Part shown: in pieces, positions 41,415-55,356 of the stretch
Layout: each line of letters begins with the position of its first letter
How positions within the stretch are numbered: position 1 is the stretch's first letter
Made by a program: the position numbers and the translations under genes
Notes under the pieces: model-generated
Told to the model about the DNA's origin: nothing
The model's database searches: none
The model's input: only the letters and a program-made list of their open reading frames with translations
DNA from: Candidatus Heimdallarchaeota archaeon
Lineage (GTDB): Archaea > Asgardarchaeota > Heimdallarchaeia > JABLTI01
Direction: 5' to 3'
Assembly: GCA_018238155.1 (NCBI GenBank)
Contig: JABCTZ010000037.1
Coordinates: 69,256-133,255, forward strand
Length of the DNA stretch: 64,000 nucleotides

Positions 41415-41604
41415 GTATTTGTGTTTCTTAGTTAAAATCGTTTTTATTGTTAATCTTAGTCAAATATAAAGCGATAATTTTCAATTCTCTTCACAGCAAT
41501 AATCTAAAATGTCCCAAAGCCTAAAATAGTTTAAATAGATATATATCGAAACAATTAACGTATTGTTAGTTAAAGAATTAGTAACTAGTACCAGGTGGAA
41601 CTAT

Positions 41605-43488
41605 ATGCTACCGATTTTGAAAACCTTGGAATTCTCTAAAATTATTCCCTTAAGTGAAAGATCTGTTGAAAAAATTATTTTTAAAGATGGAATCAACAAA
41701 TTCCTAGCTGAAAACGGGTCGGGTAAAACTACTCTAACGGATTTAATTGAACACTCTCTTGTAAGAGATGCTCATGCTTTTGCTTGGAATGTTTTTTCGA
41801 AAAAAAGAGTGGATCGTACTGCTTATGTTAAATCTGAATGGGTTTTTGGTTCAGAAAAGAATTCTATCACCCATGAGTTAACTGATGCGGGTGCTAGGAC
41901 ACGTGTAACTTCCTCCAAATTTTCAAATAAAGCACATACAAAAGATATGTATTCAGATTTCATTTATTCAAAAACAAACTTATCTTTGGAACAAATACAG
42001 AAACTATTCGAAGGGGTCTATTATAAACGAGAGAATGATTTGAATCTTTTAGGAACCCCTGGTAAAGAGAGTTTGATGGATTTCTTTGAGCTTTTGAATA
42101 AAGCAATTAGAATGGATACTCCAACAACAATTAAGCTTCGCAATCAAATTGGTGAAATTAAACGTCAAATCGATTTAAGGAAAAATAACAAACGCAAAAT
42201 TGAAGCTACTCTTGAAAAGATGGAAATAATTTTTGCTGGAACTGATTCTTCAGCTGATGCTTTAGATAATATTGGCTCCAGAAAAGGTGATTTAGAACGT
42301 AGCAATAATCAATTAAAAAAAGAAGGTGATAATTCACGTTTAGCATTTTCAAATATTGAAGAAGAGGATAAAGAAATTCTTAACAAGTTAGACAGTGATC
42401 AAGAAGTATTACTTAAAATTAGAACTCAGCTTGATTCCTTGAAATCCAATAGGTTTGCTTTTCAAGCAGATCTAAATAATCTCAAAAACGAACTTGATGG
42501 TTTCAAAAAGTTAGGCAATGTTGATTATTCTTCCATCAAAGAAGCTTGGGAAAAGAAAGAAAATTGTGAACTTTGCGGAAGCTCAATTTTCAACCATTGG
42601 GAAGAACGAGTCAAGGAAGGTTGTCCTTCTTGTGGAACACTTTGGAAAAATATCCCTAAAACCATTCAAGAATTAATTTCTAATGGGCGAAAAAATAACG
42701 GTAAAGAAACACGTGATATTCAAACAGAAATTGAGAAAATTGAACTGGAACTCAGAACAACTCAAGAAGATATTGAGAGATTGGAGAAAGATGAGAAAAC
42801 AAATAATGTATCAGTGAAGAATTTAAGGGAGAAATTGGCTACTAATAATTCTAGAAGAAGAAAACTTCAATCGCAAAATGATGTAATTACTCAGAAAATA
42901 CATAGAATTGGTGTTGAACTTGGTAGTTTATCTGCTCAAGAAAAAATGGTTAATCAAGATGAAAGCATCGGTTTGCTGAAAGTAAATCTTGAAAAAATCA
43001 ATACAGAATTAGAGAATTATTATACTCAATTGGATCGATATGAACATGAACTTCCTGAACAAGAAGAATTACAACAAATTCTCAACAATTTTACTCGTTC
43101 CACGAAAGAAATTTTTGGTTATAGTATGTTAGCTGATACAGATACGAGAATTATAACAATATCGAAAGATGATTCTGAAAGAGATTTCGAGGCTATGTCA
43201 TGGTCTGAAAGGTATTTCATCGATGTTGTCTTTAGAATATCTGTTTTCAATTTCCTAATAGAAAACGGTATAATGAAGAAAGGGTTCCTTGTTCTTGATT
43301 CTCCGGAAGCTGCTCTTGATCCACATAGATTAGATTTACTCGCGAATTTGATCAATAAACACAAAAATAAAATCACTTTCACAATTGCAACACGAGTAAG
43401 CAAATTCTTTAACCAATTAGAAGGAAATCCATTGGAAATCCGAAAACAAACTCAAACAAGTTTATTCGATTTCATTAGTATGAGTTAA
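41605..43488 (+). CDS. SMC/Rad50-superfamily ABC ATPase with central Cys motifs and C-terminal PIP box
   Basis: Walker A AENGSGKTT, coiled coils, CELC...CPSC, signature MSWSE, Walker B/D-loop LVLDSPEAALD, terminal QTSLFDFI. Confidence 0.85.
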   Translation: MLPILKTLEFSKIIPLSERSVEKIIFKDGINKFLAENGSGKTTLTDLIEHSLVRDAHAFAWNVFSKKRVDRTAYVKSEWVFGSEKNSITHELTDAGARTRVTSSKFSNKAHTKDMYSDFIYSKTNLSLEQIQKLFEGVYYKRENDLNLLGTPGKESLMDFFELLNKAIRMDTPTTIKLRNQIGEIKRQIDLRKNNKRKIEATLEKMEIIFAGTDSSADALDNIGSRKGDLERSNNQLKKEGDNSRLAFSNIEEEDKEILNKLDSDQEVLLKIRTQLDSLKSNRFAFQADLNNLKNELDGFKKLGNVDYSSIKEAWEKKENCELCGSSIFNHWEERVKEGCPSCGTLWKNIPKTIQELISNGRKNNGKETRDIQTEIEKIELELRTTQEDIERLEKDEKTNNVSVKNLREKLATNNSRRRKLQSQNDVITQKIHRIGVELGSLSAQEKMVNQDESIGLLKVNLEKINTELENYYTQLDRYEHELPEQEELQQILNNFTRSTKEIFGYSMLADTDTRIITISKDDSERDFEAMSWSERYFIDVVFRISVFNFLIENGIMKKGFLVLDSPEAALDPHRLDLLANLINKHKNKITFTIATRVSKFFNQLEGNPLEIRKQTQTSLFDFISMS

Positions 43489-46213: not shown

Positions 46214-47122
46214 ATGGTAAATGAGTCACCTTTCTCCAGTAGAAATACTATTAAACTTTCAAATAACGCTCTTAAAGAATTACTTAGTCCTATATCAGAG
46301 AAAGAACTAATCAATAAAATTGCTAACATCAAGGGTTGGAAAACAAAGCGAGTACCATTTACAGCTAAGCAATCAAAAAGAGAGTATTTCTTAATGCACC
46401 TTGGTGCAAATATTTCTTTGGCAAATTTCCGCGAATTCCGTATTATTCGAGAACATTTTCAAATTTCGAAAATTAAGTGGAATGCATTCAGTTGGGATAA
46501 AAGTATAACACGATATTTTCCTGACAAACTAGAAAAGAAAATCGAAAATGTAATTCAAAATTTGACTGCAATGGTAAACTTAGACATTATATTAGTAGAT
46601 GAAGAGACAAAAACGATTTTTCTTTTATTGGAACAATGGCAAAATCAAATTGTATCAGACACCTTTCTATCAAGAGTTGAAACGAATATCCCAAAATATT
46701 TCCGTGCATATATGTGCTTGTCGAAAAAAATGCTCCTAGTTGAAAATAAATCAGAAAAAGCTACAAATGAGTTTGTTAAGATTATCGAACAAGCATTTAA
46801 TCTTACTATAGATAAGATTCGAATTAATGCAATGATTATTCGAGAGTTTGTTAAAAACAATCCTGAAAACTTAACACGATTGATTATTCGTGTTCCTCAA
46901 GAAGTAGCAGGTTTCGGAGGTTTATCTGAATTGACACTGCAAGGTTCGGATGTCATTATAGGCTCAAAGGGGTTAATGGATCGTCATGAAACCTCACCGA
47001 TAAATGTTGGACCTTGGACAGGAGTCTCAAATGCCAATATTAGCCTTGATGTAGGGAAACCCTTGAGAGCTTCCACTGTTAAGGATGCACTTCAACTTTT
47101 TGATCTTTTGAAAGAAATGTAG
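46214..47122 (+). CDS. hypothetical protein resembling kinetochore CENP-N/Chl4 (TBP-like/RdgC-like fold)
   Basis: The 302-aa ORF is clear. The family call rests on a by-eye alignment to recalled CENP-N (see findings). Confidence 0.55.
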   Translation: MVNESPFSSRNTIKLSNNALKELLSPISEKELINKIANIKGWKTKRVPFTAKQSKREYFLMHLGANISLANFREFRIIREHFQISKIKWNAFSWDKSITRYFPDKLEKKIENVIQNLTAMVNLDIILVDEETKTIFLLLEQWQNQIVSDTFLSRVETNIPKYFRAYMCLSKKMLLVENKSEKATNEFVKIIEQAFNLTIDKIRINAMIIREFVKNNPENLTRLIIRVPQEVAGFGGLSELTLQGSDVIIGSKGLMDRHETSPINVGPWTGVSNANISLDVGKPLRASTVKDALQLFDLLKEM

Positions 47123-47288: not shown

Positions 47289-48068
47289 TTGAGCAACAAT
47301 CTAGATAATTTATTAAGTGATATTTATTCTTCAGAAAGTCAAAGTCAAGGCGTAAAAGAACTAGCGGTTTTAATTAATAATCTTTCAAATTTACTTCTTA
47401 AGTCGATTAGCCAATTGGAAAGCCGAGTGCTTAAACTTGAACAAAGTTCAGGAGGAGGAGTTAGTAGTCCTTTAGCTCCAGCAACAACTCCTGCACCCAA
47501 ACCAAAATCAGCATCTCCATTTAAACCGACAACTCCAGCATTGAGAACTCCACCGCCCCCTCCTAAACAAAGAGCTTCACCGGTAGCAACTCCAAGAGCT
47601 CAACCTACGGCTTCTGCAAGTGGAGCAGGACCAAGTTCAGCAGCACAAGCTGCTTCTATGCTAGGTGCAACACTTAAACCAGCACCAACGAAAACTCCAG
47701 CTGCAAGTGGAGCAGGACCTTCATTCTTAACAGGAGTTGTAAATCCAAATACAAGCCAAGCTTCACCAAGTACTGTTTCAACAACAGGAGCTACAATAGA
47801 TGCTTCAGCGCCAGTAAGTGCGGGAGGAGTTACTATAGATGCTTCAGCACCTGTAAGTGCAGGAGGAGGTATCGCTGGTCCCCGAGGAGGATTCAAAGGA
47901 GAATTAGCTGAAAAACTCGCAAGGAGAAGGGCAAAAGTTCAACAACAACTTGATGATGATTTTGATGCACCAGAAGAAGTGGAAGCTGAAGAAGAGGGTC
48001 CAAGTAGTGAACTTAAAACAGATTTGGAAGATGAACTTAGAAATGCATTTTCAAAACTACAAGGTTAA
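47289..48068 (+). CDS. proline-rich protein with WH2/GAB-like and VASP FAB-like motifs (candidate actin regulator)
   Basis: N-terminal coiled coil, PPPPP, AASMLGATLKPA, GGFKGELAEKLARRRAK, acidic tract, C-terminal amphipathic helix. Confidence 0.6.
   Translation: MSNNLDNLLSDIYSSESQSQGVKELAVLINNLSNLLLKSISQLESRVLKLEQSSGGGVSSPLAPATTPAPKPKSASPFKPTTPALRTPPPPPKQRASPVATPRAQPTASASGAGPSSAAQAASMLGATLKPAPTKTPAASGAGPSFLTGVVNPNTSQASPSTVSTTGATIDASAPVSAGGVTIDASAPVSAGGGIAGPRGGFKGELAEKLARRRAKVQQQLDDDFDAPEEVEAEEEGPSSELKTDLEDELRNAFSKLQG
47793..47867 (+). repeat. 39-nt tandem repeat encoding TIDASAPVSAGG x2
   Basis: acaatagatgcttcagcgccagtaagtgcgggagga / actatagatgcttcagcacctgtaagtgcaggagga. Differences are synonymous. 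Confidence 0.85.
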
Positions 48069-49038: not shown

Positions 49039-49452
49039 TTGAAAGGAATTATTACAGCTTCCAAACTTGTCTCATCTCCAAAGGAGATAGCTTTTCCAGA
49101 TTCCGTTATGACTAACCTTGAAGAATTAAGCGGAGAAAGTGGAAAGATTTTGATTGTTTATGCTTCAAACGTAAAGGCAATTTATTTCTTTTCTGTGGAA
49201 TCGGAAGTAATTAAAATTGGCATCAAGATTTATCCATTAACATCTAGAATTGTTGCAAAGATAATGGCTAAAATCAACGAATTCGCAAATAAGATAACTT
49301 ATTCAACAGGTCTCTGTCTTGTAGATGATGTCTGTGTCTGGGAAGGATTTCTTGAAACCCGTCATCTTACTAGATCTAAAGAAGAAGTTAAGAACCTTCT
49401 AAAAGAAATTGAAGAAGTTCAAGATGTTGCAATCGAAGAAGTACCTCATTAG
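49039..49452 (+). CDS. divergent AbrB-ACT-like protein
   Basis: Paralog of 54916-55356, sharing YSTGLC-x4-C-x-[WF][ED]GF. Confidence 0.65.
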   Translation: MKGIITASKLVSSPKEIAFPDSVMTNLEELSGESGKILIVYASNVKAIYFFSVESEVIKIGIKIYPLTSRIVAKIMAKINEFANKITYSTGLCLVDDVCVWEGFLETRHLTRSKEEVKNLLKEIEEVQDVAIEEVPH

Positions 49453-54915: not shown

Positions 54916-55356
54916 TCATTCTACTGATAAGACTTTAATATCTACCCCTGTTATTCCGTCAATGGTCATGATGTCTTCCTTTAATTTCTCAATATTAATT
55001 TTATCAAACTCTTCTGCATCAATGAAGCCATCAAATACACACTTATCTTCTAGAAAACACAAACCAGTAGAATAAAGCGCTTTTAAACCTAAACTCAAAA
55101 ATAAATTACCAATCCTCTTAAGAAAATCTGGCGTTAACTGTCCAATATCAATAGCTATTTTATACACCTTATCTGTCATGGTAGGAATTATACGAATAAT
55201 TTTAGTGTTTGGGGTTAGAATAACTGCAGCATAATTTCCTTCTTCTGGTTTAAGGGCATCAAGAAAATCAGCATTAAGTTGTAAAGCTTGTTCTGCTTCT
55301 AATTTAAACATACGAGCCATTGTTATTTGAGGAATTTCGACTTTTTTCTTGGTCAT
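54916..55356 (-). CDS. divergent AbrB-ACT-like protein
   Basis: IIRIIPT hinge as in 27975-28382. YSTGLCFLEDKCVFDGF. ACT-like C-terminus IDGITGVDI. Confidence 0.7.
   Translation of the reverse strand: MTKKKVEIPQITMARMFKLEAEQALQLNADFLDALKPEEGNYAAVILTPNTKIIRIIPTMTDKVYKIAIDIGQLTPDFLKRIGNLFLSLGLKALYSTGLCFLEDKCVFDGFIDAEEFDKINIEKLKEDIMTIDGITGVDIKVLSVE

Follow-up and report, generated by a model that had tools for sequence, protein, structure and literature searches.

A conserved, mostly disordered Asgard protein with VASP FAB-like and WH2-like motifs as a candidate actin-assembly factor

Asgard archaea crawl with actin-filled protrusions, and the regulators of this actin named in the works consulted are profilins and gelsolins only, the nucleation machineries of these organisms being still to be found (PMC9433394, PMC13716822). 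The question raised by the gene described here is whether it might encode a factor of the missing kind. The gene lies at 47289..48068 (+) of the window, that is, of the whole stretch of 64,000 nucleotides from a Candidatus Heimdallarchaeota genome that was analyzed. The first-pass annotation read its product as an Ena/VASP-like module, in which a poly-proline run, a GAB/WH2-like motif, a FAB-like helix, an acidic tract and a tetramerizing terminal helix follow one another as in the C-terminal half of VASP, an N-terminal coiled coil replaces EVH1, and the whole forms an oligomeric, profilin-fed elongation or bundling factor. In human VASP, the EVH2 region carries the GAB at residues 223-239, the FAB at 259-278 and the tetramer coil at 343-380 (PMC10340426).

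The gene and its host genome

The ORF is intact, starts with TTG at a site common to the 259-aa protein and its orthologues, and encodes a mostly disordered protein. Five helices were found in its AF2 monomer (aa 3-14, 20-55, 118-124, 202-225, and 241-258), the remainder being disordered; this model is of low confidence (mean pLDDT 59.6, pTM 0.20). The motifs quoted in the first-pass annotation are indeed present where it had placed them (poly-Pro at aa 87-93, GAB-like at 112-132, FAB-like at 200-216, an acidic tract from aa 222 and a terminal helix at aa 241-259), and the VASP sequences that it had quoted are correct, the GAB being that of PDB 2PBD_V, the tetramerization coil that of 1USE and the FAB that of residues 259-278 in PMC10340426.

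The actins of the host genome comprise a conventional one (C45, E 1.5e-133), a divergent actin-related protein and two that are ParM-like; two gelsolin-type proteins are encoded as well. Its profilin (C7:46651-47022) was missed by the Pfam profilin search of the genome and was recovered with a same-genus query. Homologues of the gene (n = 42) carry mostly Ca. Heimdallarchaeota or Asgard labels, and the GTDB records harboring it include JABLTI01, which we take to be a placeholder of Gerdarchaeales. In 9/9 related genomes checked, the gene is flanked by a conserved upstream 302-aa ORF with no Pfam match (46214-47122, +) and by a ThiI-like gene; the neighbors differ in the other lineages inspected, and no actin-system gene adjoins it. 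A recent duplication of 11 residues in the linker (aa 170-180 and 183-193; 47796..47867, +) is absent from most orthologues.

Some other ORFs of this genome deserve mention on their own account. On C17, a 229-aa ORF (L004:480-1169, -) that overlaps a ParM-like actin gene at its end contains a Pro-rich stretch ending in LKKV; it is the best, non-significant Pfam WH2 match of the genome (E 0.88) and is possibly an adaptor of the adjoining ParM-like actin. Within the window, two small ORFs that resemble each other (137 and 146 aa; 49039-49452 and 54916-55356, both +) have a common YSTGLC motif, the former having no useful Pfam match, and a 641-aa SMC/Rad50-like coiled-coil ATPase with CxxC pairs (41563-43488, +) falls under the Pfam cut-offs.

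An Asgard family and its N-terminal coil

Lack of conservation of the motifs had been named beforehand as one observation that would speak against the Ena/VASP-like reading. This objection does not apply, because 37 orthologues from the Gerdarchaeales-like lineage of Heimdallarchaeia show the motifs as conserved islands: the mean column identity is 0.89 for the WH2-like unit, 0.91 for the FAB-like helix and 0.94 for the terminal helix (0.91 for the N-terminal coil and 0.80 for the poly-Pro run), versus 0.31-0.51 for the linkers between them. Two additional motifs are PKPKxASPF (aa 69-78; 47493..47522, +), with a column identity of 0.88, and GPSFL (aa 143-147; 47715..47729, +), found as P[S/A]FL in 37/37 orthologues. 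One sequence (P0002) was left out of this set, being a chimera with an ABC-transporter tail. Some orthologues carry a Bathyarchaeia or a Zixibacteria label, probably through mislabelling or mis-binning: an actin labelled Bathyarchaeia shares a 90% cluster with that of the host, and a record of this sort was found in one GTDB set with Heimdallarchaeota records.

A long form was detected in 9/10 and 27/31 of the genomes searched in two groups, the latter being Heimdallarchaeaceae, whose protein gives a reciprocal match to the 259-aa gene alone (E 4e-4; profile-profile P 98%). Other Asgard lineages harbor a short form of 130-200 aa, consisting of a coil, a Pro/Gly tract and one terminal helix, in 147/301 genomes when a Freyarchaeia profile was the query and in 163/300 with a Thorarchaeia protein, with lineage names deduced for those genomes that carry no label; the coil profile of the Freyarchaeia short form matches the long-form family with P 96%, the links between the two forms resting on the coil and the helix motif. 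The copy number is nearly always one per genome. Judging from these profile comparisons, the family spans most of the Asgard lineages searched, and the 259-aa gene is its long form. Curated resources do not name it: a Pfam scan run on the query, on 38 close orthologues and on more distant members returned generic coil matches only (DUF6400 under its cut-off), the ESM Atlas gave unnamed Asgard clusters only, with scores <0.9, a PDB sequence search with the whole family retrieved no WH2, VCA or VASP peptide, and a literature search with little reach into subscription journals found no description of the family.

Proteins of similar anatomy were met in the course of these searches. In Hodarchaeales-type genomes, a paralogue-like protein with a coil, a poly-Pro run and a terminal ELK helix stands beside the main orthologue (L167:1584-2228 and L168:1146-1853). 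The host genome has a 204-aa ORF (C6:55442-56053, +) with an R-x-x-x-L-E coil, a Pro-rich linker and a terminal amphipathic helix, which scores weakly against the short-form profile (E 0.11). At another locus (L032; G138:C3:50357-53689), two or three small coiled-coil ORFs, one of them with a seven-proline run, come after an actin-related gene; here a convergent coil protein accounts for the weak match to the 259-aa family. Finally, 705-aa and 671-aa proteins of two Loki-type genomes (L217:790-2904 in G312 and L215:736-2748 in G311) contain an internal poly-Pro run and FAB-like helix and carry a C-terminal hydrophobic segment, the gene upstream of the former encoding a gelsolin.

As the first-pass annotation had proposed, a coil stands in the place of EVH1: the N-terminus is a 55-aa helical coil, and no match to EVH1 (PF00568) was obtained in the protein or in the genome (the controls were silent). 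The coil (aa 20-55; 47346..47453, +; pLDDT 86-94) is common to the whole Asgard family and embeds the trimerization motif R-h-x-x-h-E (aa 46-51; 47424..47441, +), as defined in PMC3653964. This motif, which favors parallel trimers, yet is present in some dimers too (PMC3653964), was found in 37/37 and 36/36 long-form orthologues (73/73 in all) and in 32/66 short forms, and the PDB matches of a pan-Asgard coil profile are mostly parallel trimers. The N-terminal coil is thus probably a homotrimer.

The other end of the protein gave a different picture. Compared with the tetramerization domain (TD) of VASP, the C-terminal helix ranks 2850/3648 among the ORFs of the genome, that is, at chance level, and spans about 18 residues versus 38; no family member was returned for VASP_tetra (PF08776) in the query, in the orthologues or in the Pfam genome searches. 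Oligomerization, predicted at the outset, would more likely occur through the N-terminal trimer-type coil than through the terminal helix to which it had been ascribed.

The motifs of the disordered arm

The FAB/C-like basic amphipathic helix (aa 200-216; 47886..47936, +), the hallmark of the family, is present in 37/37 orthologues. It has 8/20 residues identical to the human VASP FAB, and the protein ranks 7th when this peptide is compared with the 3,648 ORFs of its own genome. In Thorarchaeia, the terminal helix agrees with the human VASP FAB at 11/20 residues, the Gly run and the basic end among them. With a profile derived solely from archaeal short forms, the VASP FAB obtains 22.6 bits, above all of the ~1.17 million genome windows; once the Thor rows are removed, the score is 16.5 bits and is exceeded by one genome window. 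At the sequence level, then, the likeness to FAB is borne out by the rank of the protein and by the top placing of the VASP FAB with the family profile. A PDB search with the FAB-like helix retrieved no VCA or VASP peptide, the VASP FAB itself being absent from the PDB set. The order of the motifs also exceeds chance: for GAB followed by FAB the protein ranks 2nd among the ORFs of its genome, and no other of the top eight has an upstream PPPP. The ranks as a whole (FAB 7, GAB 159, TD 2850, ordered pair 2) indicate that the order is real and that the TD match is at chance level.

Among the genome windows scored with the short-form profile, aa 200-214 come first and aa 244-258 are within the top six, an order that is reversed without the Thor rows. 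Because these profiles place its window at the top or in the top six, the terminal amphipathic helix (aa 239-259; 48003..48065, +) resembles a duplicate FAB-like motif, devoid of the basic tail, and not a tetramerization coil. We also considered whether this helix might be a MIM1-type motif recruiting Vps4 or another MIT domain, which would make the protein an ESCRT adaptor. When the MIM1 consensus is used for comparison, the last helix is hydrophobic at i, i+4, and i+7 and then basic, as are the C-termini of two ESCRT-III proteins of the same genome, but the third of these hydrophobic positions is not conserved in the family as a whole, the profiles score the helix as a FAB-like copy, no ESCRT gene is adjacent within the window, and such a motif would account for neither the LKKV repeats described below nor the basic helix; we regard this explanation as very unlikely.

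Between the two helices runs an acidic tract with a conserved DDF (aa 222-237; 47952..47999, +), and Trp occurs neither there nor anywhere else in the 259 residues. The tract bears on the idea that the protein might be the precursor of a WAVE/WASH-type nucleation-promoting factor, with a Brk1/Abi/WHD-like coil followed by Pro, V, C and A segments and acting with a divergent actin-related protein. The trimer-type N-terminal coil, the Pro region and the V-, C- and acidic segments do occur in the order known from WAVE/WASH factors, in which BRK1, Abi, CCDC53 and HSBP1-type proteins form trimeric coils (PMC8047104); a divergent actin-related protein is encoded in the genome, BRK1 (E 0.01) and Abi2 (E 0.014, 58/71 profile positions) are among the 435 PDB matches of the coil profile, and HSBP1 is matched by 7/32 family members. 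However, BRK1 and Abi2 rank under many unrelated trimer coils in that same list, the coil matching no better than generic trimer coils, so that they represent a lead and not homology; no Trp is present in the acidic tract, after which comes a further helix, and V and A are missing from the short forms. On these grounds, a precursor of this type seems improbable.

The WH2/GAB-like unit (aa 117-133; 47637..47687, +), a short helix followed by LKPA, occupies the same position as repeats of the sister lineages. Taken singly, it is weak: 5/17 residues are identical to the human GAB (rank 159/3,648 among the ORFs of the genome), and the sister-lineage repeat profile gives 5.9 bits on it, a score equalled by 668 genome windows. 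L[K/T]K[A/V/T] is found at this place in 28/37 orthologues, the LKPA of the query lying outside the pattern. In the sister lineages, from one to three tandem units of a helix plus L[K/Q/T]K[V/A/I] are present at this position in disordered linkers. A further family (L100) has a single unit, 31/36 Heimdallarchaeaceae have two, and a Kariarchaeaceae-like family has three, as do the two closed genomes of the Ca. Heimdallarchaeum type. These units often end in LKKV, each being a short helix ahead of the LK motif (AF2, low confidence), and WH2 proteins typically vary in the number of their tandem units. The repeat pattern occurs 0.11 times per 1,000 aa in the host proteome, and two or three copies appeared in 0/5,000 shuffles, figures that are only descriptive because the pattern was defined after the sequences were seen. 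Compared with WASP-type WH2, helix and LK lie closer together; Pfam WH2 (PF02205) gave no family member at E<=0.5 across 83 Heimdallarchaeia genomes and none in the query or its orthologues, and WH2 peptides were not retrieved from the PDB with the repeat profile. Short motifs of the LKxV type do bind actin in Asgard gelsolins (PMC9433394). The claim of a GAB/WH2-like motif can therefore be maintained in part: the unit is tandemly repeated, with LKKV-type ends, in the sister lineages, but it is weak in the query, which has LKPA and no Pfam WH2.

The five-Pro run (aa 88-92, within TPPPPPK; 47547..47567, +) is found as PPPP in 33/37 close orthologues and in 16/3,648 ORFs of the genome. PPP occurs in 0/36 Heimdallarchaeaceae orthologues. 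Set against the human site, the profilin of the host presumably retains just a portion of the aromatic surface for poly-Pro. As reported in PMC8410842, the Loki, Odin and Heimdall LC2 profilins do not bind the VASP poly-Pro, while others bind at 0.3-3 mM. The "profilin-fed" part of the original prediction is doubtful, given the shortness of the run, its absence in Heimdallarchaeaceae and the failure of several Asgard profilins to bind such sequences; profilin hand-over is optional at best. The same considerations weigh upon the reading of the protein as a true EVH2 module, tetrameric through its C-terminal helix and fed by profilin-actin. The motif order, the FAB match and the profilin in the genome fit it, but the terminal helix has half the length of the VASP TD and neither a TD rank above chance nor a VASP_tetra match, the trimer motif sits at the N-terminus, and poly-Pro is absent from 36/36 Heimdallarchaeaceae orthologues, which leaves it an extremely unlikely explanation.

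A proposed actin-binding scaffold and its possible meaning

We lean, with little more than even confidence, towards a homotrimeric, multivalent actin-binding scaffold working like VASP or tandem-WH2 factors. This reading is favored by the wide and mostly single-copy distribution of the family, by the FAB likeness, the tandem LKKV-type units and the trimer motif, and by the conventional actin, profilin and gelsolins of the host. It is weakened by the lack of any Pfam or PDB match to WH2 or VASP, by LKPA, by a negative co-immunoprecipitation (see below) and by the lack of synteny with actin genes; moreover, short amphipathic helices converge easily and the repeat pattern is post hoc.

According to the mechanism that we propose, three chains would join through the N-terminal parallel coiled coil, a long disordered arm trailing from each. 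The WH2-like unit of each arm might bind an actin monomer weakly, with its helix in the barbed-end cleft and its LKxA stretched out on the surface; the end or the side of the filament might be bound by the basic FAB/C-like helix, the terminal helix being a second, modified copy of this docking helix. The clustering of three arms would provide the avidity for barbed-end tracking or nucleation and for filament cross-linking or bundling. The ancestral form, as in Loki, Thor, Odin, Freyr and Hod, would have possessed the coil, the Pro/Gly linker and a single FAB-like helix only, and one to three WH2-like units and the second helix may have been gained in the Gerdarchaeales-like lineage, in Heimdallarchaeaceae and in two further Heimdallarchaeia families.

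Tandem-WH2 nucleators and elongators include Spire, Cobl, and VopL/VopF. The sister lineages resemble them in carrying two or three helix plus LKKV-type units on an oligomerizing scaffold; they differ in the shorter helix-to-LKK spacing and in falling short of Pfam WH2, and the query has one degenerate unit. With Ena/VASP, the protein has in common a Pro region, a WH2-like unit and a basic FAB-like helix in a disordered arm, plus an oligomerizing coil. Unlike Ena/VASP, it has no EVH1, its coil is N-terminal and trimer-type, GAB and FAB are about 66 aa apart versus 18-40 (PMC3034019), LKPA stands for LRKV, an acidic tract and a second helix are added, and no Pfam match exists. Since EVH1 and TD are both missing, we do not assign it to Ena/VASP; it is worth noting that clustered WH2 and FAB suffice for elongation without profilin (PMC3034019). 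The Asgard gelsolins and profilins belong to the same organisms, and the gelsolins bind actin by an LKxV-type WH2-like motif; in contrast to them, the query protein has no folded actin-binding domain, and a nucleator or elongator of this kind is not described in the works on these regulators (PMC7444086, PMC9433394, PMC8410842, PMC13716822).

Published data on Lokiactin partners bear on the point. In L. ossiferum, the orthologue is located at 2,628,799, directly after NEF87_002200, whose product of 24.03 kDa corresponds in mass to GNAMCCOK_02218 of the published proteomics tables (24.01 kDa; 10.1101/2025.11.30.690169); the orthologue should therefore be GNAMCCOK_02219, probably the same as NEF87_002201, an identification that we infer from the neighbor. 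This protein was detected in 16/16 proteomes with a mean log2 of 18.47, the profilin Pro2 being lower (17.38) (10.1101/2025.11.30.690169). It is missing from the rows of the cross-linked Lokiactin co-IP that span ratios from +10 to -1.06 and hence is not enriched with Lokiactin; five gelsolin-domain proteins and one profilin are enriched in the same experiment (10.1101/2025.11.30.690169). This result, obtained with a short Loki form devoid of the WH2-like unit and in an assay that loses weak or membrane-bound binders, lowers the odds of actin binding without refuting it.

A different reading is that the helices dock a non-actin partner, for instance a small GTPase or a protein that shapes membranes or acts in trafficking, and resemble VASP through the convergence of basic, Gly-rich amphipathic helices. 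The co-IP result just described would fit, as would the silence of the curated models, the absence of synteny with actin genes and the occurrence of the Pro plus helix motif inside an unrelated protein of 670-705 aa in two Loki-type genomes. However, it leaves unexplained the LKKV repeats and FAB look-alike in VASP order and the 11/20 match of Thorarchaeia. We hold it to be possible, though doubtful. We likewise advance only tentatively, as a rather unlikely extension of the scaffold reading, the idea that the WH2/FAB(C) arm of actin assembly originated in this archaeal family, from which the Ena/VASP arm, and perhaps the coil-plus-VCA plan of WAVE/WASH, would descend.

As a multivalent actin-binding scaffold, the protein would be a good candidate, still unproven, for the missing archaeal actin-assembly factor. 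Conserved, mostly single-copy, and disordered, with VASP-FAB-like and tandem WH2-like motifs, it is of a type that domain and fold searches miss. If actin binding were disproved, a near-universal Asgard protein would still be in need of explanation. If the idea of descent is correct, Asgard archaea would have in this family the actin elongator or nucleator that they have so far seemed to lack, and if a role in actin assembly is confirmed, barbed-end assembly factors would predate eukaryotes.
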